Below are positions 6,075-27,442 of a DNA stretch of 64,000 bases, one piece after another (positions within the stretch are counted from its first letter, which is position 1; every line of letters begins with the position of its first letter). The position numbers and the translations under genes are program-made. A model generated the notes under the pieces. That model did not search any database, was not told the origin of the DNA, and worked only from the letters and a program-made list of their open reading frames with translations. Origin of the DNA: an uncultured Gemmatimonadales bacterium (GTDB taxonomy: Bacteria; Gemmatimonadota; Gemmatimonadetes; Gemmatimonadales; GWC2-71-9); NCBI GenBank assembly GCA_963771275.1, contig CAVYSW010000003.1, positions 864,001 through 928,000 on the forward strand, in the 5' to 3' direction.

Positions 6075-6334
6075 CAAAACGTAAGGTCGCGGTCACGGTG
6101 TCGCCCGAGGCGCTCGCGGCCGCCGAGCGGCTGCGCAAGCGCACGGGCGAGAGCCGGAGCGCCGTCTTCGAGCGGGCACTCCAGCAACTGGCGGACGACG
6201 AGCTCCGCGCCGAGCAGAGTCGCCGATACGTCGCGGGGTACCGGCGCGCCCCCGAGACGAGGCGCGACATCGACGCGGCGCTCGCGACGGCTGTCGTCGC
6301 ACTCGGCACGGAGCCCGCGGATGCGGAGGGGTGA
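6071..6334 (+). CDS. Ribbon-helix-helix (CopG-like) antitoxin
   Basis: KVAVTV beta strand, SRSAVFERAL helix, YVAGY..PE motif; overlaps the toxin gene. Confidence 0.8.
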   Translation: MTKRKVAVTVSPEALAAAERLRKRTGESRSAVFERALQQLADDELRAEQSRRYVAGYRRAPETRRDIDAALATAVVALGTEPADAEG

Positions 6335-6647
6335 GGTCTGGTGGGCTGAGCTTCCTGCGCCGGTGGGACGCCGTCCAGTCGTGCTGATCTCGCGCGATGA
6401 AGCGTACTCGGTGCGGGAGCTCGTCACGATCGCCCCCGTTACCACGCGCGCGCGCGATATTCCCGTCGAGATCCCCGTGGGGCGCGACGAAGGCCTCCCG
6501 AGAAGGTCGGTGGTCAACGCCGACACGATCACCACGATCCCGAAGCGCGCACTCGTCGACTACGCTGGCGTGCTGGACGGTGCGAAGCTCACCCAGTTGG
6601 ACGCGGCCATCCGGTTCGCGCTGGGGCTGAAGCGGGGATACCGCTGA
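6321..6647 (+). CDS. mazF: PemK/MazF-family endoribonuclease toxin
   Basis: MRRGEVWW, RRPVVLIS, IAPVTT, GLPRRSVVNADTITTI, G.L...L..LD.AI..ALGL. Confidence 0.92.
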   Translation: MRRGEVWWAELPAPVGRRPVVLISRDEAYSVRELVTIAPVTTRARDIPVEIPVGRDEGLPRRSVVNADTITTIPKRALVDYAGVLDGAKLTQLDAAIRFALGLKRGYR

Positions 6648-12937: not shown

Positions 12938-14701
12938 TCACCCTCGGAAGTAGAGGTAGGCGAGCAGGATCAGGAGCAGCACGGCCCCGGAGCTGATCAC
13001 GTCGCCGCGCGACCAGCTGCCGCGCGATTCGCGGCGGTGCGTGTCGGTGATGGTGCCGTACGTCAGGCCCGCGATCCGCTCGTAGGCCGGAGCCGCCGTG
13101 AGGTAGCTGACACCCACCATGACGGCGACCGACACGAGGAAGATGAACAGGCTGTAGTACTGGAAGTAGACGTTGTTGACGATCCAGAGGAACGACCCGG
13201 GCGCGTAGCCATCGGCGAAGCCTGGGAGGTGGAGGCTCACCGGCGTGTCCACCGCGAGGCGGAACACGCCGAGCACGAACCCCACCACGAGCGCCGCGAG
13301 ACACCCCTTGGCGTTCAGCCGTTTGTGGAACACGCCGAGGAAGAACACCGTGAAGATCGGCGGCGCGAGATAAGCCTGCACGCCCTGGAGATACTCGTAC
13401 AGTCCCCGCGCCCCTTGAATCACGGGAATCCAGGCCAGCCCGATCAGCACCATGACGGTCGTCGCGACTCGCCCGATCCACACCAGTTGATGCTGGCTCG
13501 CACCGGGCCGGATCTTCTGATAGAAGTCCATCGTGAACAGCGTGGAGCTGGCATTGAACACGCCCGCGAGCGAGCTCATCAGCGCGGCGAGCAGTCCCGC
13601 GACCACGATGCCGCGGAGGCCCACCGGCAGGACGTACTTGACCATCATAGGAAACGCGGCCTGCGCCACGAGCGGGACGGCATTGCCGTCCGGTCCCACC
13701 ATGGACTGCAGCGCCGGCACCTTGCCCGACTTGGCGAGCGCCAGCGCGATCATGCCGGGGATGATGAAGATGAACACCGGCAGGAGCTTCAAGGCCGACG
13801 CGAAGATGCTGCCGCGCCGGGCCTCACGCTCATTCGGCGCGCCGAGCGCGCGCTGCACGATGTACTGGTCGGTGCACCAGTACCACAGGCCGATGATCGG
13901 GGCGCAGAACAGCATGCCCAGCCACGGGTAGTTGGTGTTGAAGTACCACGCGACCCGGCCCGCTTCCTTGACCGGCGCCCAGGTGCCCGCCATCCCCGCG
14001 GGGACGAGCGGCTTCCAGAGGTTGAACATGTCGGGGTCGAGCACGGCACGCAGCTCGCTCCAGCCGCCCAGCTTGGCCAGGCCAAACAACGTCAGCACGG
14101 CGGACCCGACGACGAGAATCAGGGTCTGCAGCGCCTCGGTGTACGCCACCGCGCGCATGCCGCCGAGCACCGTGTAGAGGCCGGTGAGCAGCACAACGGC
14201 CATCGAGCCGATCCAGAAGGCGTTGAGCGTGACCGACCCGATGCGCAGCATCATCTCGGGCAGCAGCGTGGCGAACACGATGCCGCCGGCGAAGATCCCG
14301 ACGGCGATCTTGGTGAGGACATAGGCCACCAGCGAGATGATCGACAGCACCCAGCGCGCCGTGGGCGAGAACCGCTTCTCGAGGAACTCCGGCATGGTGT
14401 AGACCATGGACCGGGCGTAGAACGGCACGAACACCCACCCGAGCACCAGCAGGCACCACGCGTGCAGCTCATAGTGCGCCAGGGCCACGCCGCTCGTGGC
14501 GCCCGCGCCGGCGAGCCCCACCAGGTGCTCGGACCCGATGTTGGACGCGAAGATCGACGCGCCGACGATGAACCAGCCGAGGTTGCGGCTGGCGAGGAAG
14601 TAGTCGGCGGCGGTGTCCTTGTTGCGTTTGAACACCCACCAGGCCAGCCCCATGAGGCCGACGAAGTACGCGAGGATGATGAGCCAGTCGAGCGCCGCCA
14701 T
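12938..14701 (-). CDS. Sodium:solute symporter (SSS), probably pentose
   Basis: DYFLASR, SIFASNIGSEHLVGLAG, WYWCTDQYIVQR, LAALMSSL; many TM helices. Confidence 0.93.
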   Translation of the reverse strand: MAALDWLIILAYFVGLMGLAWWVFKRNKDTAADYFLASRNLGWFIVGASIFASNIGSEHLVGLAGAGATSGVALAHYELHAWCLLVLGWVFVPFYARSMVYTMPEFLEKRFSPTARWVLSIISLVAYVLTKIAVGIFAGGIVFATLLPEMMLRIGSVTLNAFWIGSMAVVLLTGLYTVLGGMRAVAYTEALQTLILVVGSAVLTLFGLAKLGGWSELRAVLDPDMFNLWKPLVPAGMAGTWAPVKEAGRVAWYFNTNYPWLGMLFCAPIIGLWYWCTDQYIVQRALGAPNEREARRGSIFASALKLLPVFIFIIPGMIALALAKSGKVPALQSMVGPDGNAVPLVAQAAFPMMVKYVLPVGLRGIVVAGLLAALMSSLAGVFNASSTLFTMDFYQKIRPGASQHQLVWIGRVATTVMVLIGLAWIPVIQGARGLYEYLQGVQAYLAPPIFTVFFLGVFHKRLNAKGCLAALVVGFVLGVFRLAVDTPVSLHLPGFADGYAPGSFLWIVNNVYFQYYSLFIFLVSVAVMVGVSYLTAAPAYERIAGLTYGTITDTHRRESRGSWSRGDVISSGAVLLLILLAYLYFRG

Positions 14702-14889: not shown

Positions 14890-16023
14890 ATGACACGGTT
14901 CGCCAAGGACCAGATTGGCTACGCGCTCGCCCGGAAGACGCCGCTGGCGCGGGCCGAGGCGATCGAGTTCCTGAAGACGCTGGACATCCGGATGAGCGTG
15001 GGACACTGGTCGGCGGGCGAGTTCTTCGACCGGTTCGCCCCGTTGGGCTATCACTCCGACGATCCCACGTTCACGAGCGACTTCGCAGCGCAGTGCCGCC
15101 GCACCAAGGCGGCCGGGATCGACGCGATCGAGATCCACCAGCACGTGTTCGAGAAGACGCTGAACGGCGAGATCGACTGGCCGGCGGTCGAGCGGGCCAA
15201 AGGGGGCTACCTCGCCGAATTGGGGATGACGATCCCCGCGTGCAACATCAACACGTGGACCAACCCCAAGTTCCGCCTCGGGGGACCGTGCAATCCGGAC
15301 CCGGGCGTACGGCGCGCCGCGCTGGACGAGATCCTGAAGGCGGTGGAGATCTGCCAGGCGCTGGAGATCCCCGTGCTCAGCGTCTGGCCGGGATCCGACG
15401 GCGCCGACTACCACTTCCAGATCGACTACCGCCAGTCGCTCGAGTGGTTCACCGAGGCCCTGGTGGCAGCCAACACGGCCTGCCTCGCGGCCGGCATCAG
15501 GCTCGCGATCGAGCCCAAGCCCTACGAGCCGCGCGAGCTGTACATGATCATCCCGACCGCGGCATCAGCGGTCCTCGTGGCGCAGCGCGTCAACGCGACG
15601 TGCGGCGGAACGAATTGCGGGCTCACCGTGGATTACGGGCACCAGAAGATGGAGGGGACCACCGCGTCGACCGCGTGCGATCTCGCCGCGTACGCCCGCG
15701 TGCCGATCCACAAGTTCGACATCAACGACGCGCGGCAGGGGCGGAACGACCAGGACTGCATCTTCGGGACGATCTCCATCCCCGAGGCGGTGGAGTACCT
15801 GTTCACCACATTCCTGCGCGGCTACCGCGGCTACTACAGCCAGGACCAGTTCACCTACCGGGACGACCCGACGCGCGCGATGGAGCGGAGCATGGTGAAT
15901 TTCGCCAACCTGGCGCTCAAGGCGGTGCGGGTCTACGCGAAGCGCGACGAGCTCGACCGCGCGCGGACCGCGGGCACCGGCCCGGACGTGCTCGATCTCG
16001 TGAGCCCGATCCTGCTGGGGTAG
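14890..16023 (+). CDS. Xylose-isomerase-like TIM-barrel sugar isomerase
   Basis: SD GGAG. Motifs NTWTNPKFRLGG..NPDP.VRR, WPGSDG, IEPKPYEPR, DYGHQKMEG, DIND, NDQD parallel the XylA metal and substrate motifs. Confidence 0.8.
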   Translation: MTRFAKDQIGYALARKTPLARAEAIEFLKTLDIRMSVGHWSAGEFFDRFAPLGYHSDDPTFTSDFAAQCRRTKAAGIDAIEIHQHVFEKTLNGEIDWPAVERAKGGYLAELGMTIPACNINTWTNPKFRLGGPCNPDPGVRRAALDEILKAVEICQALEIPVLSVWPGSDGADYHFQIDYRQSLEWFTEALVAANTACLAAGIRLAIEPKPYEPRELYMIIPTAASAVLVAQRVNATCGGTNCGLTVDYGHQKMEGTTASTACDLAAYARVPIHKFDINDARQGRNDQDCIFGTISIPEAVEYLFTTFLRGYRGYYSQDQFTYRDDPTRAMERSMVNFANLALKAVRVYAKRDELDRARTAGTGPDVLDLVSPILLG

Positions 16024-16026
16024 TAC

Positions 16027-17721
16027 ATGACCCGCGCGTTCACGATCGGGGTCGATTTCGGGACCAGCTCGGTGCGGGCGGTCGTGGTCGACTGCGCCGA
16101 CGGCCGGACCCTGGGGACGGACGCGTTCGACTATCCCTCCGGCGAGCGTGGCGTGCTGCTGGACCCGCGGGATCCGCACCTGGCGCGGCAGCACCCGGGC
16201 GACTACGTGGCCGGCCTCGAGGCGTCGGTACGGGGCGCGCTCGCCGCCGCTCAAGCCGAGCGCGGGTTCTCGCGCGAGCGGGTGATCGGGATCGGCGTGG
16301 ACACCACCGGCTCGACCCCGATCCCCGTGGACGCCGCCGGCCGGCCGCTCGCGCTCGATCCGCGGTGGCGCGGCAACCTCGCCGCGCAGGCGTGGCTCTG
16401 GAAGGATCACACCGGCGCCGAAGAGGCGGCCGCGATCACGGAAACGGCGCGCCGCCACGCCCCCCAGTACCTGGCGCCGATCGGCGGGACGTACTCGTCG
16501 GAGTGGTTCTGGTCCAAGATCTGGCACTGTCTCAAGGTGGCGCCCGACGTGTTCGCGGCGGCCGACAGCTGGGTGGAGCTGGCCGACTACGTGCCCGCGC
16601 TGCTGGCCGGCGTGACGAGCGCCCGCGCGATCGCGCGCTGCGTGTGCGCCGCGGGGCACAAGGCGATGTACTCGGAGGCGTGGGGCGGGCTTCCCTCCGC
16701 GGAGTTTCTGGCACGGCTGGACCCGCGCCTGGCAGAGCTGCGCGGGCGGCTGTACGACAAGGCGCATCCGGCCGATCGGCCGGCGGGGCAGCTCGCCGCG
16801 CCGTGGGCGGCCGCGTTCGGCGTGCGCGTCGGAATCCCGGTGGCCATGGGCGGGTTCGACGCGCACTACGGCGCGGTGGGGGCCGGCGTGCGGCCGGGCA
16901 CGTTCGTCAAGATCATCGGGACCTCCACCTGCGACTGCGCGGTCGCGCCGATGGGCGTCGTGGTGCGCGACATCCCGGGTATCTGCGGGATCGTCGACGG
17001 CTCCATCATGCCGGGCTGCCACGGCATCGAGGCCGGCCAGTCCGCCGTGGGGGATCTGCTCGCCTGGTGGGTGGAAGCAGTCTGTCAGGGGGACGAGGCG
17101 CTCCACACGAGACTCTCCGCGGACGCCGCGCGGCTCCGGCCGGGCGAGAGCGGGCTCGTGGCGCTCGACTGGAACAACGGCAACCGCACGATCCTGGTGG
17201 ACCCGCGGCTCACGGGACTGCTCGTCGGGCAGACGCTGCACACGTCCCGCGCGGAGGTGTACCGCGCGCTGATCGAGGCCACCGCCTTCGGCGCGCGCAC
17301 CATCGTCGAGCGGCTCGAGGAGTACGGCGTGCCAATCGAGCGCGTGGTGTGCTGCGGTGGGATTGCCGAGAAGAACGACCTGTTCATGCAGGTGTACGCC
17401 GACGTGCTCGGCCACCCCATGCTGCTCGCGGGCTCCGCCCAGACGCCCGCCCTGGGCGCGGCGATCTCGGCGGCGGTGGCGGCCGGCACCGCCGCAGGCG
17501 GCTACGACGGGTTCGAAGCCGCGCAGCGCCACATGACGTCGCTCCAGGAGCGACGCTTTACCCCCGACACCGGCGCGCAGGCGGTGTACGACGAGCTGTA
17601 CGGGTTGTACCGCGAGCTGCACGACGCGTTCGGCGGCGTGCCGCGCGCGGGCGCGGACCTCGCGACGTTCATGAAGCGCCTCCTGGCCGTGCGTGAGCGC
17701 GCGGCAGGCGCCGGGCACTGA
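16027..17721 (+). CDS. araB: L-ribulokinase
   Basis: IGVDFGT.SVRA, ARQHP.DY, GIGVDTTGST, LWKDHT, YSSEWFWSKI, CAAGHKA, FDAH, IIGTSTCD, EAGQSAVGD, LDWNNGNR, GGIAEKN. Confidence 0.93.
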   Translation: MTRAFTIGVDFGTSSVRAVVVDCADGRTLGTDAFDYPSGERGVLLDPRDPHLARQHPGDYVAGLEASVRGALAAAQAERGFSRERVIGIGVDTTGSTPIPVDAAGRPLALDPRWRGNLAAQAWLWKDHTGAEEAAAITETARRHAPQYLAPIGGTYSSEWFWSKIWHCLKVAPDVFAAADSWVELADYVPALLAGVTSARAIARCVCAAGHKAMYSEAWGGLPSAEFLARLDPRLAELRGRLYDKAHPADRPAGQLAAPWAAAFGVRVGIPVAMGGFDAHYGAVGAGVRPGTFVKIIGTSTCDCAVAPMGVVVRDIPGICGIVDGSIMPGCHGIEAGQSAVGDLLAWWVEAVCQGDEALHTRLSADAARLRPGESGLVALDWNNGNRTILVDPRLTGLLVGQTLHTSRAEVYRALIEATAFGARTIVERLEEYGVPIERVVCCGGIAEKNDLFMQVYADVLGHPMLLAGSAQTPALGAAISAAVAAGTAAGGYDGFEAAQRHMTSLQERRFTPDTGAQAVYDELYGLYRELHDAFGGVPRAGADLATFMKRLLAVRERAAGAGH

Positions 17722-17743
17722 AGGAAAGGACGGGCGGATCGCG

Positions 17744-18448
17744 ATGATGCGGATTGCCGTGGAGCTGCGCGAGGCCGTCTACCGGGCGAACATGGAGCTC
17801 GTGGAACGCGGCCTCGTGCTCGGCACGTTTGGCAACGCCTCCGCCGTGGACCGCGCGGCCGGCGTCTTCCTCATCAAGCCGAGCGGGGTGCCCTACGATC
17901 AGCTCACGCCGGCGCACGTGGTGGCGGTTTCGCTCGAGACGGGCGAGGTCAGGGACGGCGACTACCAGCCGTCTTCGGACGCGCCAACGCATCGGGAGCT
18001 GTACCGGGCGTTCGCCTGCGGGGGCATCGCGCACACGCACTCGGAATGCGCGACCGCCCTCGCCCAGGCGCGGACGCCCGTGCGCTGCCTCGGGACCACG
18101 CACGCCGACTACTTCCGCGGTGACGTGCCGGTCACGCGGCCGCTCACGCGGGCGGAGGTGGAGGGCGATTACGAGCGCAACACGGGCCTGGTGATCGTCG
18201 AGACGTTCCGCGCGCTGGGACGCTCGGCGGCGGAGGTGCCGGGTGTGCTCGTGGCCAATCACGGCCCGTTCACGTGGGGGAGCGACGCCGACGCGGCCGT
18301 CGAGCACGCGCACGTGCTCGAGTACCTCGCGCGGGTCCAGCTGTGGATGCGCCTGGTGGCGCCCGAGGCACCCGCGCCGGATGCGTTCCTGGTGGACAAG
18401 CACTATCTGCGGAAACACGGCCCCGATGCCTACTACGGGCAGCCGTAG
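17744..18448 (+). CDS. araD: L-ribulose-5-phosphate 4-epimerase
   Basis: TFGNAS, IKPSGV.Y, PSSD.PTH, HTHS, GTTHADYF, YE.NTG, NHGPFTWG, KHYLRKHG..AYYGQ. Confidence 0.95.
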   Translation: MMRIAVELREAVYRANMELVERGLVLGTFGNASAVDRAAGVFLIKPSGVPYDQLTPAHVVAVSLETGEVRDGDYQPSSDAPTHRELYRAFACGGIAHTHSECATALAQARTPVRCLGTTHADYFRGDVPVTRPLTRAEVEGDYERNTGLVIVETFRALGRSAAEVPGVLVANHGPFTWGSDADAAVEHAHVLEYLARVQLWMRLVAPEAPAPDAFLVDKHYLRKHGPDAYYGQP

Positions 18449-19115
18449 GCCGCCGCCCCGCTCGTCTCTACCTCGGGCCGTTCTCTGGGATCTGGACGGC
18501 ACCCTCATCGACTCGCGGGACCAGCACTGGCGCTCCTGGCGCGCGGCGCTCGCCGCCGAGGGGATCACCGTCACCGAAGCGCAGTTCGCCACCACGTTCG
18601 GCCAGCGCAACGACGCCATCCTCACCGCGTGGCTGGGCCGCGCCGCCGCCCCCGAGCTGATCGCGCGGATCGGCGACGACAAGGAGCGCCGGTTCCGCAA
18701 GCTGGTGGAGCGGGAAGGCGCCGTGCTGCTGCCGGGCGCGACGGAGTGCGTGCGGCGCCTGGGGGAGGCCGGATGGCTCCAGGCCATTGCCTCCTCGGCG
18801 CCACGCCTGAACGTCGAGGTGGAGCACGCAGCGCTCGGCATCGAGGGGCGGTTCGCCGCGCTGGTGAGCGCCGAGGATGTGCACGCCGGAAAACCCGACC
18901 CAGCCGTGTTTCTCGTCGCGGCCACGCGGCTGGGCGTGCCGGCCGCCCGCTGCGTGGTCGTCGAGGATGCGGCGCCCGGCATCGAGGCCGCGCGGCGCGC
19001 GGGGATGCGCAGCATCGGCGTGGGCCCGGGGGTCGGCTCCGCAGCCGACGTCAGCGTGGCGTCACTCACAGAGCTCGCGCCGGATGCGTTCGAGAGGCTG
19101 ATCGAGAGTCGCTAA
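18426..19115 (+). CDS. HAD-family sugar phosphatase (beta-PGM-like); start uncertain
   Basis: WDLDGTLIDS, ASSA, GKPDP..F, VVEDAAPGIEAA..AGM. Confidence 0.85.
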   Translation: MPTTGSRRPPPRSSLPRAVLWDLDGTLIDSRDQHWRSWRAALAAEGITVTEAQFATTFGQRNDAILTAWLGRAAAPELIARIGDDKERRFRKLVEREGAVLLPGATECVRRLGEAGWLQAIASSAPRLNVEVEHAALGIEGRFAALVSAEDVHAGKPDPAVFLVAATRLGVPAARCVVVEDAAPGIEAARRAGMRSIGVGPGVGSAADVSVASLTELAPDAFERLIESR

Positions 19116-19180: not shown

Positions 19181-20806
19181 CTACAGACGACGCCGCGCGC
19201 CTGCTATTCTCGCCTCGGTCGGATCCCCACCCAGCCCCAACGCCTGTGCCTCGCACACCCCGTAGACCCGCGCGAGCTTTGCGTAGATCGCGACGTGCGC
19301 CGGGACCGGCCGGATGCGCGTCGCGGCCACGGGCTCCGCGAATCCCAAAACGACGTCCTCCCAGCTAGTTGGCTGGCCGTCGGCCATCCGGTCCGCGTGG
19401 TACGCGCGGAGCGCCGCGCCGAGGCAGGCTGAGTTGCCGACCTCGAGCTGGTACACGTCCGCATCGTGCGCGTCGGCCATCACCTGGAGGATGGCCCGGT
19501 TCCGCGCGGCGCCGCCGGTGGCATGGATCTGGTCCACGTCCACCCCCATCCAGCGGGAGTGGAGCAGCAGCGTCAGCATCTGCGCCTCCACCACGGCGCG
19601 CACGTTGGCCGGCCCGTCCGCGGGGTCGAGGTTGTAGCGGCGCACGCCTTCCTGCAGCACGGTCGGCGTGATCTCCGGCTCGAACCACGGCAGCATGATC
19701 GCGCCGCCGTTCCCGGGAGCAGTCGCCTCGAGACAGCGCGAGAACCCCGCCCAATCCAGACCGTACGCGTCCCGCACGCGCTCGCGCGCCAGCGAGCCGT
19801 TTCGGCAGCAGACCAAGCTCATGTAGTCGCCGGTGGGTGCGCCGAACAGGTGGCCCGTGCCGCTCGGGTCCACCCGCGGCTCGTGCAGCAGGCCGAACAG
19901 CGTGTCGCTCGTGCCAAGCGAGATGGCGATGCGCCCCTCGCGCACGATCCCGGTGCCGATCAGCGAGCACGGGTTGTCGCCGGACCACGCCACCACGCGG
20001 GCCGCTGGGAACCCGTACCGCTCGGTCCAGTAGCGGGCGAGCGAGCCCACCACGGTCCACGAGGGCGCGACCTGCGGCAGCCGGCGCAGCAGGTCCGGCG
20101 CCGTCGCCGCGAGCGCAGCCGGAGCCCACTCGCGCCGCGCGATGTCCATCAAGTTCATGCCTGAGCCATCGCCCGGCTCGATCGGCGCGTGACGGCCGGC
20201 GAGCAACGACGCCAGGAAGCTGCTGACCAGGTGAATGCGGTCGGTACGGGCGTAGCCAGCGGGATCACGCTCGGCGTACTTCCGGATCTGCGGGCCGGTG
20301 AAGCGCTCGAACCCCCGGGATCCGGTGAGGCGGGCCATGGCGTCCCCGCCCCCCACCTCCAGTGTGATTGCCGCGCATTGTGCAGCGGTGCTCGCGTCCA
20401 TCCAGATCGGCGCGTCCGCGCGCGACAGCATGCCCGACACCTGCTGCGCGAGCGGCTGCGCCGGGTCGAGGCCGGCGAGGGTCGCGGTCGCGGTTGCGTC
20501 GAGATACACGCTGCCGTGCTGCTGCGCGGACCCCGAGATCGCCCGCACGTTCCGGAGATCGAACCCGCCTTCCCGCGCGATCACCGCCATCATGCGATCG
20601 AGCGCTTCGGCCCACATCAACGGCGACGATGTCGCGACCAGCGGATCGTCCCCGGGTAGGATGCCGTGCCGCGTGCCGTAGTGCGGCAGCTCCGTGTCGA
20701 ACTCGAACGCGTGCTGGAACGCCACGCGCCGTCGCGCGCCGTCCACCTCGATCGCGATCGCCGTGAGGCTCTGGGTGCTCAAGTCGAAACCGAGGTAGAT
20801 CGCCAA
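19181..20806 (-). CDS. xylB: Xylulokinase, eukaryote-type (XYLB/Xks1-like) FGGY kinase
   Basis: YLGFDLSTQ, SGSAQQHGSVY, WMD.ST..QC, TGSRGFERFTGPQIRK, HLVSSFLAS, DGSGMNL, GDNP, SLGTSDT, NGSLARE. TTG start after GAGGAG. Confidence 0.88.
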   Translation of the reverse strand: MAIYLGFDLSTQSLTAIAIEVDGARRRVAFQHAFEFDTELPHYGTRHGILPGDDPLVATSSPLMWAEALDRMMAVIAREGGFDLRNVRAISGSAQQHGSVYLDATATATLAGLDPAQPLAQQVSGMLSRADAPIWMDASTAAQCAAITLEVGGGDAMARLTGSRGFERFTGPQIRKYAERDPAGYARTDRIHLVSSFLASLLAGRHAPIEPGDGSGMNLMDIARREWAPAALAATAPDLLRRLPQVAPSWTVVGSLARYWTERYGFPAARVVAWSGDNPCSLIGTGIVREGRIAISLGTSDTLFGLLHEPRVDPSGTGHLFGAPTGDYMSLVCCRNGSLARERVRDAYGLDWAGFSRCLEATAPGNGGAIMLPWFEPEITPTVLQEGVRRYNLDPADGPANVRAVVEAQMLTLLLHSRWMGVDVDQIHATGGAARNRAILQVMADAHDADVYQLEVGNSACLGAALRAYHADRMADGQPTSWEDVVLGFAEPVAATRIRPVPAHVAIYAKLARVYGVCEAQALGLGGDPTEARIAGARRRL

Positions 20807-20899
20807 CTGACGCTCCTCGTTCGAGCGCGGACGCCCTAAGCATAGCGGACTTGGGCGTCGCGCTCTATGCTATCAGTCCCTCGAACGGCGGATGGTGCT

Positions 20900-22672
20900 G
20901 TGAGCGATTCCCTCTCGCGCCGCGATTGGCTCAAGGTGATGGGCGCCGCCGGCGCCGGCTCGATCCTGGTACCGGGCGCGGCCCAGCCGGCCCCGGCGCA
21001 AGAGCCCCGCGTGCTGCCGCTCACCTCCACCAGCGAGGTGTTCGTGCCGGGCCGCGGACGCGGGTTCATGAAGTTCAGCTTCGATTTCCCCGAGCCGTCC
21101 GTCGAGCTGGACGGGCTGCGCTACGGATGCCTCGTGTTCACCCGCGAGAACGTGTATGGGCTCGACCGCGAACGGATGACGGTCGAGGCCAACGCGGACG
21201 GGCTCACAATGAGCGCCTCGGGGCTGGTGTGGGCCGGCGGGCAGGAGCGGGCCGCGGGAACGCTGGTGGCGCGGTTCCGGAGAAGCGGCAGCACCGTTGA
21301 GTGGGACGTCACGGCCGAAATGGCGCAGCCGATCAAGGCGGTCACCACCGTGATCCGCGGCCTCCCGCGCGGCCGCCTCTCGGCCGGGGGTGGCGAGCCG
21401 TTCGATCCCGAGGACAACGAGGTCCTCTACGGCTATCCGTTCAGCGGCGGCGACCTGTTCGGCGCCAACACCGCGTGGGGCCTCACGACCCCGCTCGTTG
21501 CACTGCAGCGCGGCGACACGGATTTCCATTTCATCGCGTCACTCGACGACCGGGTGCGCACCAAGCGGTTCTACTTTCAGCCGGGCCCGGCGGGCTACCG
21601 CGTGGAGGCGGTGCACGAGGTCGAGGGCTGGCTCGACCAGACCCGCGTCGTGGTCCCGACGTGGCGCCTCGGCCGCACGGCCACGCTGGACGCGGCCGCG
21701 GCGCTGCACTATGCCCACCTCGAGCTCGCCTACGGGATTCCCGCCTGGGAGACCCGCGACGACGTCCCGGCATGGCTCCGCGACGTGGCCCTGGTGATCA
21801 CGCTGCACGGCGAGCACTACACGGGCTACGTGTTCAACGACTACGCCCGCATGCAGGAGATCCTGCGCTGGGTCGCGACCCGGATTCCGGCGGGCCGCGT
21901 GCTGGTGTTCCTCTCCTCCTGGGACGGCCGCTACTACTGGGACTACCCGCTCTATCGCGCGTCCGAGCGGATGGGCGGCGAGGCCGGGTTCCGCCGACTC
22001 ATGAAGGAAAGCCAACAGCTCGGCTTCAAAATGATGCCGATGTTCGGCGCGAACGCCGCCAACCGGCGCCAAGCCGTCTTCCAGCGCGTGGCGGACGCGG
22101 CCACGCGCAAGGTGGACGGCGACGTCATGGATCTCAATTGGGTGGACTGGGACAACGACCGCCATCAGGAGGGCTGGCTCGCCTACATGAACCTGGGCGT
22201 CGATTCCTGGCGGCAGCACCTCACCGAGCGGATCGCCGACGCGATCGACCGGTACGGGGTGGACGCCTATTTCCTCGACATCATCGGCGGGTGGGTGAAC
22301 AACACCGAGGCCGACATGCACGAGGGGGCGCGCCGGCTGGTGGCGGACCTGCGCCAGCGCTACCCGCACGTCCTCGCCTGCGGGGAGATGCTGTACGACG
22401 CGCTGCTCGGCTTCATTCCGCTCTACCAGGCGTCGAACTCACGCTACCACCGGAAGTACGCCCGGTTCTTCAGCCACCTGAGTCACCCCGCGCCGGGCCG
22501 CGGGAGCAGCGGGGTCCACGAGTCCGGATTCGGGCGGTGGGATCCCGAGAGCCTGCTGCTCCGCCCCGGCACCATCCCCACGCTGAACGTGGTGGACGAC
22601 ACGTTCACCACCTACCGTGAGGCGATGGCGGCGGTGATCGCGCGGGCGAGGTCGCAGGCCGGCCTTCCCTGA
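20900..22672 (+). CDS. Tat-exported unclassified glycoside-hydrolase-like protein
   Basis: SRRDWLK Tat motif; beta-rich N domain, then a Trp/Tyr-rich barrel-like region (WDGRYYWDYP, GGEAGF, YGVDAYFLD, CGEM); located in the pentose locus. Confidence 0.55.
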   Translation: MSDSLSRRDWLKVMGAAGAGSILVPGAAQPAPAQEPRVLPLTSTSEVFVPGRGRGFMKFSFDFPEPSVELDGLRYGCLVFTRENVYGLDRERMTVEANADGLTMSASGLVWAGGQERAAGTLVARFRRSGSTVEWDVTAEMAQPIKAVTTVIRGLPRGRLSAGGGEPFDPEDNEVLYGYPFSGGDLFGANTAWGLTTPLVALQRGDTDFHFIASLDDRVRTKRFYFQPGPAGYRVEAVHEVEGWLDQTRVVVPTWRLGRTATLDAAAALHYAHLELAYGIPAWETRDDVPAWLRDVALVITLHGEHYTGYVFNDYARMQEILRWVATRIPAGRVLVFLSSWDGRYYWDYPLYRASERMGGEAGFRRLMKESQQLGFKMMPMFGANAANRRQAVFQRVADAATRKVDGDVMDLNWVDWDNDRHQEGWLAYMNLGVDSWRQHLTERIADAIDRYGVDAYFLDIIGGWVNNTEADMHEGARRLVADLRQRYPHVLACGEMLYDALLGFIPLYQASNSRYHRKYARFFSHLSHPAPGRGSSGVHESGFGRWDPESLLLRPGTIPTLNVVDDTFTTYREAMAAVIARARSQAGLP

Positions 22673-22719
22673 GGGGGTCCGTCCTTCCCTAGCGTTCCGG
22701 GCGACATATCTTGTCAGGC

Positions 22720-24651
22720 GTGTCGGCGGCCCTCCCAGCGGACCTGCTCGACGCCCTCGCAGGGCGATTCGCGGTCGAGCGCGAGCTCGGTCGCGGCGGC
22801 ATGGCGACCGTCTTCCTGGCCCACGACCGCAGCCTCGATCGTCGCGTGGCCATCAAGGTGCTGGCCCCGGAGCTGTCGGCGGCGTTGGGCCCGGACCGGT
22901 TCTCCCGCGAGATCCGCCTCACGGCGCGGCTCGTGCACCCCAACATCGTCCCGCTGTTCGATTCGGGCGAGGCCAGCTCCTGCCTCTACTACGTCATGCC
23001 GTTCATCGACGGTCAAACCTTGAGGAGCCTGGTCGTGAACGGCGCGAGACCGGCGGACGAGGTGGCGCACATCGTCACCGACCTCGCCGAGGCACTGGCA
23101 TACGCGCACGGCATGGGGATCGTGCACCGCGACCTGAAGCCGGAGAACGTGTTCTGGTATGGCGGGCGCGCGCTGCTCGCCGATTTCGGGATCGCGACCA
23201 CCACGAGCACCACGCTCGCCGGAGGCCCGCTGACCGGCACCGGCACGATCGTCGGCACCGTGGCGTACATGAGCCCGGAGCAGGCGTCCGGCGCCCGGGA
23301 CATCGACGGACGGTCCGACCTCTACAGCCTGGGCTGCGTGGCGTTCGAGCTGCTCACGGGCCAGCCCCCGTTCACAGGCGACACGCCCATGGCCCTGCTG
23401 GCCGCCCACCTCACCGCTCCGGTGCCCTCGGTGCGGGCGCTCAAGCCCGAAGTGCCGCGCCGCATGGCGACGGTCGTCGAACAGCTGCTCTCGAAACAGC
23501 CCGCGGAGCGCCCGCCCACCGCCGCCGCGTTCCTCGAGCTGGTGCGCACGGATCCGGGGCTCGCGCCCATGGCGCGGCCTGCGACACCGGCCGCCGCAGC
23601 TGCGTCAACCGGCGCCATGAGCCGCGCGGCGCCCGAGATCCGCGATCTCCTGGTGAAGGCCCGCACGCTCCTCAACCGCGCGATGCAGGGCGGTGACGCG
23701 GCCCGCGCCAAGCTGGACATGGCGCGCGTGTACTTGGAGAAGGCGCTGACGCTGGCGCCCGACGATGCGCTCGCGCTGGTCCTGCTGTCGGACGTGATCT
23801 TGGTGCTCGGCGTCCGCGGGTACACCGACTTCGCGGAAGCGACCGAGCGGGCACACGAGCTCCGGATGCGGGCGCTTGCGACGGACGACATGGTGGGTGA
23901 AGTGCACATCTCCCTCGGTGTGGACTTCCTCTATTGGCAGGACGATTTCGAGACCGCCGGAATCGAGCTACAGCGCGGCGTGGAGATGTCTCCCGACTCG
24001 ACGGAGGGCCGGCGCCTCTACGGCGCGTGGCTCAAGATCGCCGGCCGGACCGCGGAGGCGCTCGAGGAGATGCGGGCGGCGGTCCGGCTCGAGCCGCAGG
24101 CGCCGTTCATGCACGTGGGTCTGGCCGACGTCCTCATGACCATGGGTCGCTATCACGAGGCCATCGGCCCGTTGCGGGACGCGCTGCGATTGCTCCCCCG
24201 TTACGAGGCGGCGCTCGAGCGGCTGGAGATGAGCTGCCACCGCGCCGGGCGGCACGAGGAGGCGCTCGACGCGCGCCGCATGCTGCTCGGCATCCGCGGA
24301 GAGACCGAGCGCATGGAGCAGTTGGCGGCCGACGCGGTTGCCGACGGCTGGCTGGTGGCGCGCGAGCGCGATCTCCGGCGTGAGCTCGACGCCCTGCTCC
24401 CGCGAGCGGAGCAGGAGGACCCATTCCGCGATCTCGGGGGCAGCCGCCAGCTGGCCGACAAGATCGTGATCGTCCTGGCGGAGCTGGGGGAGTGGTCGCA
24501 GGCGATGGACTGGATCGAGCGGGGCTACCATCGCCGCCCTGGACGCCTGCGACGCGTCCTGACCGATCTCCCCTACGACCACCACGGCCTGGCGAGCGAT
24601 CCGCGCTACGTGCGGCTGCTGCGGACGGCCGGGCTCGAGGATCTGCTGTAG
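22720..24651 (+). CDS. Hanks-type Ser/Thr kinase with TPR repeats
   Basis: LGRGGMATV, VAIK, HRDLKPEN, DFG, YMSPEQ, SDLYSLG, C-terminal TPRs. Alternative start TTG 22711. Confidence 0.92.
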   Translation: MSAALPADLLDALAGRFAVERELGRGGMATVFLAHDRSLDRRVAIKVLAPELSAALGPDRFSREIRLTARLVHPNIVPLFDSGEASSCLYYVMPFIDGQTLRSLVVNGARPADEVAHIVTDLAEALAYAHGMGIVHRDLKPENVFWYGGRALLADFGIATTTSTTLAGGPLTGTGTIVGTVAYMSPEQASGARDIDGRSDLYSLGCVAFELLTGQPPFTGDTPMALLAAHLTAPVPSVRALKPEVPRRMATVVEQLLSKQPAERPPTAAAFLELVRTDPGLAPMARPATPAAAAASTGAMSRAAPEIRDLLVKARTLLNRAMQGGDAARAKLDMARVYLEKALTLAPDDALALVLLSDVILVLGVRGYTDFAEATERAHELRMRALATDDMVGEVHISLGVDFLYWQDDFETAGIELQRGVEMSPDSTEGRRLYGAWLKIAGRTAEALEEMRAAVRLEPQAPFMHVGLADVLMTMGRYHEAIGPLRDALRLLPRYEAALERLEMSCHRAGRHEEALDARRMLLGIRGETERMEQLAADAVADGWLVARERDLRRELDALLPRAEQEDPFRDLGGSRQLADKIVIVLAELGEWSQAMDWIERGYHRRPGRLRRVLTDLPYDHHGLASDPRYVRLLRTAGLEDLL

Positions 24652-25534: not shown

Positions 25535-27442
25535 ATGCAGCGCCGAGATTTCCTCACCGCCACGGCGGTCGCAGCCGCACTTCCCCTGAGGGCGCACCGC
25601 GCCGGCCGTGCGCCGCTCGCCGCCGACGAGCCGCGCATCAAGGTGCAGCCGTTCGATCTGTCCCACGTGCGCCTCCGGCCCGGGCCGTTCCTCGACGCCA
25701 CGCTGGTGAACCGCCGGTTCATCATGGGGCAGGACCCCGACCGGCTGCTCCACACGTTCCGCCTCACCGCCGGCCTGCCGACGAACGCCGAGCCGCTCGG
25801 CGGCTGGGAGGCCCCTGAAAACGAGCTGCGCGGCCACTACACCGGCCACTACCTGTCCGCCTGCGCGATGCTCGCGGCGAGTCTGGGCGACGACGAGGTG
25901 AAGACGCGCGGCAACTTGATGGTGACCGAGCTGGCGAAGTGCCAGCAGGCCATCGGTAACGGCTACCTGAGCGCGTTCCCGATGGAGCTGCTCGACCGGC
26001 TGCGCGAGGGACGCCGCGTCTGGGCTCCGTGGTACACGCTGCACAAGATCATGGCCGGCCTGCTCGACATGCACACCCTCGGCGGCAACGCGCAGGCGCT
26101 CGACGTGCTCAAGGGCATGGCCGCGTGGACCCGCGGCTGGAGCCAGCCGCTGAGCGAGGCGGCCATGGCGCGGGTGCTCGAGGTCGAGTACGGCGGCATG
26201 AACGAGCTGCTCTACAACCTCTCGGCGGTTACCGGCGACCGCGGCTACCGCTGGACGGCGCGCCGGTTCGATCACGAGCGGTTCTTCGCGCCGCTGGCCG
26301 ATGGGCGGGACGAGCTCAAGGGGCTGCACGCCAACACGCAGATCCCCAAGATCATCGGCGCCGCGCGGCGCTACGAGCTGACCGGCGAAGTCCGCTACCG
26401 TCGCGTCGCCGAGTACTTCTGGCGCGAGGTGACGGGCCGCCGGTCGTACTGCACGGGTGGCACCAGCAACGGCGAGGGCTGGGGCGCGGACCCCGGCGTG
26501 CTCTCGACCCAGCTCTCCGGCTACACCGAGGAGAGCTGCGTCACCTACAACATGCTGAAGCTCACGCGCCACGTGTTCGGCTGGACGGCCGATCCCGCCT
26601 GCGCCGACTATTACGAGCGGGCGCTGTTCAACGGGATGCTCGGCACGCAGCACCCGGCCGACGGCAACAAGCTCTACTACCTGCCGCTCGCCTCGGGCTT
26701 CTGGAAGCTGTTCGGCACGCCGGAGCACGACTATTGGTGCTGCACCGGGAGCGGCTCCGAGTCGTTCGCCAAGTTCGGGGACAGCATCTACTTCCACGAC
26801 GACCAGGGGATCTACGTCAACCTGTTCATCGCCTCCGAGGTGGATTGGCCCGAGCAGGGGATTCACCTGGTGCAGGACACGCGTTTCCCGGAAGAGGGGA
26901 GGGTCACCCTCACCGTGCATGCGTCGGGATCGCATCGCATGCCGCTCCGCATTCGCGTGCCGTCGTGGGCCGGCCGCGGCGCCATGGCGACGCTCAACGG
27001 GCGGGCGCTGGAGGGATTCGCCGCGCCGGGCGGCTACTACGTGCTCGACCGCTCGTGGAAGGACGGCGACAGACTGGAGCTCTCGTTCCCGATGAGCCTC
27101 CACGCGGCTCCTATGCCGGACGACGACTCGGTCCAGGCGATCATGGTTGGACCGCTCGTGCTGGCGGGCAAACTCGGCACGGAGGGCCTCACGCCCGCGG
27201 TCGTGCGCGCCGAGCCCACGAAGCCGCGGACCATCCCCGAGTACCACGCGGATCCCGTGCCCGCCCCGGCGCTCAAGCCCATGGGCAATGCGCTCTCCGA
27301 CTGGATCACTCCGGTGCCGGGCCGGCCGCTCGAGTTCCGCACCCGGGGGCAGGAGCGGGATGTGACGCTCGTGCCGCTGTCCGGCGTGTTCGACGAGCGG
27401 TACGCGGTGTACTGGCAGGTGACGCGCGAGGCCGTTCCCTGA
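25535..27442 (+). CDS. GH127/GH146 beta-L-arabinofuranosidase with Tat signal
   Basis: QRRDFL, GGWE, LRGH..GHYLSA, WAPWYTLHKIMAGL, EYGGMNE, HANTQIPK, ESC.TYNMLKL, YYERAL.N, WCCTGSG.E. Confidence 0.92.
   Translation: MQRRDFLTATAVAAALPLRAHRAGRAPLAADEPRIKVQPFDLSHVRLRPGPFLDATLVNRRFIMGQDPDRLLHTFRLTAGLPTNAEPLGGWEAPENELRGHYTGHYLSACAMLAASLGDDEVKTRGNLMVTELAKCQQAIGNGYLSAFPMELLDRLREGRRVWAPWYTLHKIMAGLLDMHTLGGNAQALDVLKGMAAWTRGWSQPLSEAAMARVLEVEYGGMNELLYNLSAVTGDRGYRWTARRFDHERFFAPLADGRDELKGLHANTQIPKIIGAARRYELTGEVRYRRVAEYFWREVTGRRSYCTGGTSNGEGWGADPGVLSTQLSGYTEESCVTYNMLKLTRHVFGWTADPACADYYERALFNGMLGTQHPADGNKLYYLPLASGFWKLFGTPEHDYWCCTGSGSESFAKFGDSIYFHDDQGIYVNLFIASEVDWPEQGIHLVQDTRFPEEGRVTLTVHASGSHRMPLRIRVPSWAGRGAMATLNGRALEGFAAPGGYYVLDRSWKDGDRLELSFPMSLHAAPMPDDDSVQAIMVGPLVLAGKLGTEGLTPAVVRAEPTKPRTIPEYHADPVPAPALKPMGNALSDWITPVPGRPLEFRTRGQERDVTLVPLSGVFDERYAVYWQVTREAVP

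Follow-up and report, generated by a model that had tools for sequence, protein, structure and literature searches.

A xylose-isomerase-fold protein in the araA position of a Gemmatimonadales arabinose operon as a probable non-orthologous L-arabinose isomerase

Gene content of the arabinose locus

We analyzed a 64,000-nucleotide stretch of DNA (the window) from an uncultured Gemmatimonadales bacterium (GCA_963771275.1, contig CAVYSW010000003.1, positions 864,001 to 928,000), in which the L-ribulokinase gene araB and the L-ribulose-5-phosphate 4-epimerase gene araD are preceded by a gene for a xylose isomerase (XI)-fold protein, named here the XI-fold isomerase (Table 1). From the gene content of the genome and the comparison of related operons, we propose that this protein catalyzes the step normally assigned to AraA. 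The XI-fold isomerase gene, with GGAGGGA standing 9 nt 5' of its ATG, is separated from araB by 3 nt (TAC), araD follows araB after 22 nt, and the start of the HAD gene overlaps the araD stop. The order and strands agreed with the original prediction, which had described a tightly packed isomerase-araB-araD-HAD set, sodium:solute symporter (SSS) and glycoside hydrolase (GH) 51 genes divergent from it, and a convergent kinase gene. The four packed genes are presumably co-transcribed. A promoter and terminator scan at the locus gave no signal exceeding shuffled sequences, and one query for a LacI-type regulator found no match in the genome.

AraB scored just short of the TIGR01234 cut-off (546 against 583 bits) and AraD under that of TIGR00760, in addition to the model matches listed in Table 1. 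The best NCBIfam rows placed the HAD protein in subfamily HAD-IA, near beta-phosphoglucomutase (beta-PGM) and YqaB. The comparison with the Bacillus order araA-araB-araD-araL(HAD) made in the original prediction was loosened accordingly: AraL of B. subtilis belongs to HAD-IIA, no HAD-IIA model appeared for the HAD protein in the best 25 of 31 NCBIfam matches or in the 4 from Pfam, and HAD-IA models lead, so orthology to AraL was rejected and the parallel is an analogy. The HAD protein probably acts as a safety valve for pentulose phosphates.

Table 1 Features of the arabinose locus, in positions of the window
Feature	Position	Strand	Length	Assignment and evidence
XI-fold isomerase gene	14890-16023	+	377 aa	Proposed L-arabinose isomerase; XylA/RhaI-superfamily (beta/alpha)8; PF01261
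araB, L-ribulokinase	16027-17721	+	564 aa	NF003154/PRK04123, 625 bits (cut-off 428)
araD, L-ribulose-5-phosphate 4-epimerase	17744-18448	+	~234 aa	ATG 17744 inferred; NF006047/PRK08193, 298 bits (cut-off 257); PF00596
HAD-IA sugar-phosphate phosphatase-like protein	18426-19115	+	~229 aa	ATG 18426 inferred; PF00702/PF13419; best NCBIfam TIGR02009 (beta-PGM family)
FGGY kinase, probable D-xylulokinase of non-XylB type	19181-20806	-		FGGY_N/C; TIGR01312, 187 bits (cut-off 380)
SSS, probable pentose importer	12938-14701	-		PF00474, TIGR00813; divergent from XI-fold isomerase
GH51 alpha-L-arabinofuranosidase	11271-~12950 (start inferred)	-		PF06964, PF22848; NF051901 below cut-off; Tat-like leader; divergent
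DUF6259-like protein	20867-22672	+		Weak PF19773; Tat-like leader; candidate glycosidase
GH127 beta-L-arabinofuranosidase-like protein	25535-27442	+		PF07944, PF20736

Isomerase complement of the source genome and of other carriers

The original prediction had found no AraA or FucI gene in the window, and this held for the whole source genome (96.71% complete, 0.01% contamination). Profile searches of the genome gave no match to AraA (PF02610, PF11762), FucI (PF02952) or D-lyxose isomerase (PF07385), and the class I and II XylA models matched only the XI-fold isomerase, far under cut-off, so that no second XylA was found; control searches gave matches in 3 to 6 of 14 reference genomes. A D-psicose-3-epimerase-like query found no such gene in the genome. 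Three other candidates were rejected. The second PF01261 gene (C5) showed no match to isomerase queries, the third FGGY gene reads as a glycerol kinase, and as a xylitol-dehydrogenase-like source of D-xylulose the genome offered only matches of 26-29%, the best of which reads as threonine dehydrogenase. Transketolase is present. Little xylan machinery was seen: GH43 had no match in the genome and single queries for GH10, GH67 and GH31 found none, while GH3 and GH2 are present.

Other genomes carrying the family were searched likewise (50 of 79 carriers, selected for the length of their contigs). Neither AraA nor any PF02952 protein was found in 38 of the 50.

Conserved association with araB and araD

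A GTDB scan yielded 133 relatives, and the best 80, mostly Gemmatimonadota and Acidobacteriota metagenome-assembled genomes (MAGs) by title, were compared; two of the 80 loci come from one genome, L107 (genome G354) is counted, and neighbour genes were found by single-protein queries. The homologues proved to be tied to the arabinose genes, with araB in 72 loci and araD in 64. Counting only the 77 loci whose sequence continues for 400 nt or more downstream, araB was the next recognised gene, within 450 nt, in 69. HAD genes occurred in 48 loci, GH127 in 37, GH51 in 26 and one or other of these two arabinofuranosidase families in 50. Less frequent were the xylulokinase-type kinase (30), SSS (27), mutarotase (24), DUF5695 (14), DUF6259-like (8) and GH31 (5) genes, and AraA was found once. 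GH10, GH67, GH3 and XylA were found in none of the 80 loci.

A variant arrangement was seen in genome G349, in which the isomerase gene is directly followed by araD without araB (L113:9968-11900), and a separate araB-araA pair stands at L127, with no araD match within the 19 kb fetched. DUF6259-like (window 20867-22672) and DUF5695 (L098:2107-4962) proteins recur in arabinose clusters with any isomerase, and the former gene was present in most FucI-fold ara clusters examined; both are candidate arabinan or arabinoside hydrolases. Between the DUF6259-like and GH127 genes the window also holds a Ser/Thr protein kinase with TPR repeats (22711-24651, +). At some distance lies a 108-aa open reading frame (6321-6647, +), presumably resembling a PemK/MazF-type toxin of a bacterial toxin-antitoxin pair.

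Exchange with AraA and a FucI-fold protein beside araB

Each query was run on the same phylum sample of 301 genomes, in which the XI-fold family occurred in 5, AraA in 8, PF02952 in 33 and AraD in 50. Among the 50 AraD-positive genomes, 5 had the XI-fold isomerase, 8 AraA, 29 the FucI-fold protein and 8 none of these, with zero overlap. The naive P of 6e-4 for mutual exclusion is overstated because kin genomes are not independent; 7 of the 8 AraA genomes belong to one genus. In the AraD regions fetched, the FucI-fold gene stood with araB in 11 of 16. Even within one genus (g11) the isomerases differ, G037 having the XI-fold isomerase and G038, G161 and G237 the FucI-fold gene beside araB.

The strongest evidence came from two operons. 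In L191, AraA and a mutarotase accompany SSS, araB and araD with 78%, 73% and 68% identity to the window genes. L346 comprises a mutarotase, a FucI-fold gene directly before araB (74% identity), araD, SSS and an FGGY kinase. The SSS orthologues of the AraA and FucI-fold operons stand at 76-78% identity to that of the window, and the AraBs of both operons nest in the clade of the AraB partners of the XI-fold isomerase (FastTree, support 97). Therefore, one kinase-epimerase cassette is served by three unrelated isomerases, one of them a canonical AraA.

The FucI-fold protein filling the slot beside araB (PF02952, ~470-500 aa; L195:1486-2991 (-), L346:3266-4675, L179-L193) occurs in many Gemmatimonadota and in one Acidobacteriota operon. 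It reached no NCBIfam cut-off and had no PDB sequence match, and it is a candidate for a further L-arabinose isomerase family.

Fold, family and phylogeny of the XI-fold isomerase

The sole Pfam match of the XI-fold isomerase was PF01261, and the protein stayed under every NCBIfam cut-off, with 92.5 bits on class I XylA (TIGR02631, cut-off 447), 19.9 bits on class II XylA (TIGR02630, cut-off 533), and 59 and 38.7 bits on the rhamnose isomerase models TIGR02629 and TIGR02635 (cut-offs 531 and 647). Its AlphaFold model (pLDDT 76; active-site loops below 50) showed the barrel and C-terminal arm of the superfamily, aligning at Z 24-26 over 304-331 residues with XylA, PDB 3KTC and the Pseudomonas stutzeri rhamnose isomerase (6n98, Z 26.4, root-mean-square deviation 3.4, 315 residues aligned; 3ktc, Z 26.2; 2hcv, Z 25.3). 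The AraA domains PF02610 and PF11762 are absent from the protein, and the best pairwise E of 0.15 indicates no sequence similarity to AraA, which was also not among the best 50 fold matches shown, a result that by itself excludes nothing. The XI-fold isomerase belongs to none of XylA, RhaI and AraA.

Class I XylA (Streptomyces, Thermus, Actinoplanes) shares the fold with its arm and has equivalents in the XI-fold isomerase for W16, H54, W137, E181, K183, H220, D245, D255, D257 and D287. However, structural identity is 22-24%, the XI-fold isomerase lies outside the XylA clade and sits in ara rather than xyl operons, and XylA E217, T90 and F94 are replaced by Asp248, Asn119 and Trp123. The best PDB sequence match (E 2e-22; class I XylA was second) was 3KTC, putative sugar isomerase YP_050048.1 of Erwinia carotovora atroseptica, which we take to be the D-apiose isomerase ApsI. 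It shares WPGxDG, D-x-G-H, D-x-N-D and DQF with our protein but has 330 aa instead of 377 and 21-23% structural identity, and the 3KTC-like proteins appear on separate branches and mostly have no equivalent of H83. The L-rhamnose isomerase of the P. stutzeri/Gram-positive type resembles the XI-fold isomerase in fold, in the Asp at its D254 ligand and in the N-x-N strand, whereas its His281 is Asp277 here and the rhamnulokinase/aldolase context is missing. The motifs named in the original prediction (IEPKPYEPR, WPGSDG, DYGH, DIND, DQD) are all present. Two of them, WPGSDG and DYGH, are not peculiar to the protein, since WPGxDG and D-x-G-H both occur in 3KTC and its relatives, and D-x-G-H also in rhamnose isomerases.

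The family is compact. At E 1e-3 or better 616 proteins matched, the best 120 of them at 79-92% identity, and the top Atlas match was a 718-member cluster. Among 50%-cluster representatives there were one full-length member (81%) and one sister cluster (41%), followed by proteins at 30-37%. A quick tree built from 54 rows placed the family (support 99), its sister (96) and their joint clade (99) outside XylA classes I and II. Rhamnose isomerases, the nearest characterised branch, joined this clade weakly (support 87, long branches). The 3KTC-like proteins P0158-P0231 (27-37% identity), long-branched stand-ins for 3KTC, which was itself not included, fell outside the joint clade (99) in this quick tree.

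The sister family (P0129) gives little support either way for the substrate. Several of its loci look archaeal and carry an FGGY kinase and a class II aldolase. In two others, L302 and L327, genes for a zinc dehydrogenase, a psicose-3-epimerase-like protein, an SDR and a xylulokinase-type kinase lie together in divergent orientation, a set that would suit a non-phosphorylated route from L-ribulose through L-xylulose and xylitol to D-xylulose. Another uncharacterised clade of the XylA superfamily (L008:1333-2454 (-), also L009, L011, L021, L025, L027 and L137) stands directly before a xylulokinase-type kinase, often with SSS, and has the XylA-type Glu at the second metal ligand; it is a candidate for an unrecognised xylose isomerase.

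Conserved residues of the active site

W40, H83, N119, N121, W123, W166, E208, K210, D248, H251, D277, D287, D289 and D319 were invariant in 202 of 202 alignment rows, comprising the window protein, the 80 loci and 121 proteins, many of them close kin. The 80 loci had been searched for with patterns that include W40, D248 and H251, so only the 121 proteins are independent for these three. The protein thus has the superfamily's site for two metals together with the shielding Trp, the Lys and the ring-opening His. The conserved residues suggest a 1,2-hydride shift assisted by two metals, the chemistry of XylA and rhamnose isomerase, in which H83 would open the ring, W166 would provide shielding and K210 would belong to the catalytic set, with E208/D248/D277/D319 as putative metal site 1 and H251/D287/D289 as putative metal site 2.

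As described in PMC11485043, metal 1 of XylA is held by E181/E217/D245/D287 and binds O2 and O4, and that of rhamnose isomerase is held by E219/D254/H281/D327 and binds O2 and O3. Neither set is present here: the E217 position of class I XylA is Asp248 in all rows, and the His281 position of rhamnose isomerase is Asp277. The site is a hybrid E/D/D/D, its second ligand rhamnose-isomerase-like and its third XylA-like, and the 3KTC alignment shows the same pattern. The N-x-N strand is likewise rhamnose-isomerase-like. The sister family has E/D/H/D at metal 1 (11 rows examined).

Possible activity on D-xylose

The original prediction labelled the convergent kinase xylB; it is an FGGY kinase, but not the usual bacterial XylB, given its TIGR01312 score (Table 1). 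Its orthologues (61-64% identity) adjoin class I XylA in L236 and L243 and stand in a XylA-SSS-kinase block in L344, an adjacency that points to a probable D-xylulokinase. A type at 31-33% identity was found with class II XylA in L227 and L228. An orthologue (at least 53% identity) was present in 42 of the 50 carriers searched; 34 of these lack XylA of both classes I and II, and 27 lack PF02952 as well. In four carriers lacking the kinase, XylA is accompanied by a XylB of bacterial type. The kinase also follows the XI-fold family across genomes: in the phylum sample 4 of 5 carriers have it, compared with 1 of 296 other genomes, and in a sample of the order of genome G322 it occurs in 5 of 5 carriers, compared with 14 of 106 others.

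We considered whether the kinase without XylA proves dual function, and this argument was weakened: 3 of 4 kinase-positive genomes without the XI-fold isomerase also had no TIGR02630 match, and the kinase ends the FucI-fold operon L346. Separately, L340, L341 and L345 (G384, G363, G397) have a xylulokinase-type kinase with neither a XylA match nor an XI-fold family member, and in G397 a FucI-fold gene lies ~5 kb from this kinase. Canonical XylA or a fragment of it is retained by 12 of the 50 carriers, in xylan/xylose clusters where examined. Because of these 12 carriers, the kinase in non-carriers without XylA and at the end of L346, and the little xylan machinery, the dual L-arabinose/D-xylose activity put forward originally receives moderate support at best. 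That the XI-fold isomerase also acts on D-xylose, feeding AraB-AraD and the xylulokinase from one gene, is possible, and we lean slightly against it.

C4 is the only position at which D-xylose differs from L-arabinose. Binding of O2 and O3 is conceivable for the hybrid E/D/D/D site and would leave C4 without influence, so that an enzyme binding in this way would be blind to the difference between the two sugars. By the same stereochemistry, it might also act on D-galactose and D-glucose. A study by Langan et al. in 2014 reportedly deals, by its title, with L-arabinose isomerization by XylA (cited in PMC11194214), a precedent for the fold handling this sugar.

Weighing the proposed L-arabinose isomerase against alternatives

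Taken together, the absence of AraA, FucI and XylA, the association with araB and araD and the mutual exclusion in the 50 AraD-positive genomes support the non-orthologous L-arabinose isomerase originally predicted. We consider it likely that the XI-fold isomerase is the physiological enzyme for L-arabinose, the arabinose-only and dual cases contributing about equally; both its substrate and its mechanism are putative. In the proposed pathway, GH51 and GH127 would release L-arabinose, SSS would import it, and the XI-fold isomerase would convert it to L-ribulose for phosphorylation by AraB; AraD would then yield D-xylulose-5-phosphate, to be taken on by transketolase. The enzyme would have replaced AraA by non-orthologous displacement, and its AraA-type step is probably a separate invention.

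Several observations weigh against this assignment. The gene next to the isomerase is not araB in 8 of the 77 loci (L063, L069, L088, L090, L102, L103, L107, L113). In L069, L088 and L103 the partners are HAD and a 32% xylulokinase-type kinase, araB lying elsewhere in all three genomes; in the genomes of L090 and L107 araB had no match. AraA was present in 5 of the 50 carriers: ~11 kb off in the same cluster in L124 and L125 (G347, G350), in a separate araB-araA operon in two others (L126, L127), and on a short contig end in the fifth (L128). Some PF02952 protein was found in 10 of 50, and the absences in carriers are soft because all carriers seen are MAGs. The 41% sister family stands mostly outside ara operons, with 80 metagenome loci mostly without sugar genes and one each adjoining a ribulokinase-like (araB) and an araD-like gene. 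Asp248 matches rhamnose isomerases, whose substrates are opposite to L-arabinose at C3 (PMC11485043 and textbook stereochemistry), and the FucI-fold rival for the slot is itself uncharacterised. A canonical araA in the genome combined with xylose-only activity, or homologues apart from araB and araD, had been named beforehand as evidence against the prediction; AraA is confined to the minority of carriers just given, the source genome lacks it, and the homologues keep to araB and araD. The members in G347 and G350 are the earliest branch of the XI-fold family, and the G347 AraB groups with that of L191, so that co-occurrence with AraA may reflect an exchange still in progress or two enzymes sharing the work. 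Two non-orthologous pentose isomerases, XylA-I together with XylA-II, have been reported to co-occur elsewhere (PMC2873477).

That the enzyme isomerises another aldose, be it L-ribose (giving L-ribulose) or, in the manner of rhamnose isomerase, D-ribose or L-lyxose, with AraB or the second kinase taking the product, is very improbable. Asp248 and the N-x-N strand, the weak grouping of the family and its sister with rhamnose isomerases rather than XylA, and the match to 3KTC, presumed to act on D-apiose, would suit such an enzyme. However, the neighbours are L-arabinofuranosidases and the slot is interchangeable with AraA. D-ribulose would need no AraD, L-xylulose would need a 3-epimerase, for which the D-psicose-3-epimerase-like query found none in the genome, and L-ribose is rare in nature.

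A D-xylose isomerase feeding only the xylulokinase, with the L-ribulose for AraB coming from an unrecognised enzyme, is very improbable. The fold, the XylA-type Asp277, the 34 carriers with the kinase and no class I or II XylA, the pairing in L069, L088 and L103, and AraA within the clusters of L124 and L125 would all be accommodated. Yet araB-araD would then have no isomerase in 38 of 50 carriers, and why the XI-fold isomerase, AraA and the FucI-fold protein exclude one another would go unexplained; xylan genes are absent from the 80 loci except for GH31 in 5, canonical XylA persists whole or as a fragment in 12 carriers, and 14 of 106 genomes of the order sample have the kinase but not the XI-fold isomerase.

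An epimerase of ketoses or ketose phosphates, like UlaE/SgbU or D-tagatose-3-epimerase, is hardly credible. In its favour, a PF01261 protein beside an FGGY kinase and an AraD-like gene has the layout of an L-xylulose route, and epimerases share the Pfam family and match the model (UlaE 3cqh, Z 20.5; D-allulose epimerases, Z 20-22). However, the Z values of aldose-ketose isomerases are higher by 4-6 and their alignment takes in the C-terminal arm, the residues typical of isomerases (W40, H83, W166, K210 and, in the second metal site, D287/D289) do not vary, AraB exceeds a ribulokinase cut-off, and no upstream dehydrogenase was seen in the clusters.

Relation to known systems and significance

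A literature search, judged mostly by titles and covering subscription papers poorly, returned no description of the XI-fold family or of a TIM-barrel L-arabinose isomerase, and the L-arabinose isomerases in the literature surveyed are AraA-type. AraA has the proposed reaction, pathway position and araB-araD-SSS cassette (L191) in common with the XI-fold isomerase, but not its sequence. For Caldicellulosiruptor bescii a non-orthologous L-arabinose isomerase, AraI, has also been predicted, which is presumably FucI-like but could be related to the XI-fold family. AraI comes from regulon prediction, with TM0951 as best match at 25% (PMC8579813). The closest parallel in kind is XylA-II of Clostridium acetobutylicum, likewise a non-orthologous displacement of a pentose isomerase but the reverse swap, a FucI-family fold acting on xylose. 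XylA-II was demonstrated by knockout, complementation and assay, and co-occurs with XylA in two genomes (PMC2873477).

If the proposed function is true, the XI-fold isomerase would carry out L-arabinose isomerization on a xylose-isomerase barrel and so mirror XylA-II, the xylose isomerase with a FucI fold: a known pathway and a known fold in a new pairing. It would illustrate, in a natural enzyme, how recognition of O3 or of O4 is determined by the metal site. Should the enzyme act on both sugars, engineered microbes could use a single gene for the two pentoses of lignocellulose, and the enzyme could be considered for making L-ribulose or D-tagatose. The assignment would correct hundreds of proteins labelled xylose or rhamnose isomerase and would supply a missing pathway step in Gemmatimonadota and Acidobacteriota.

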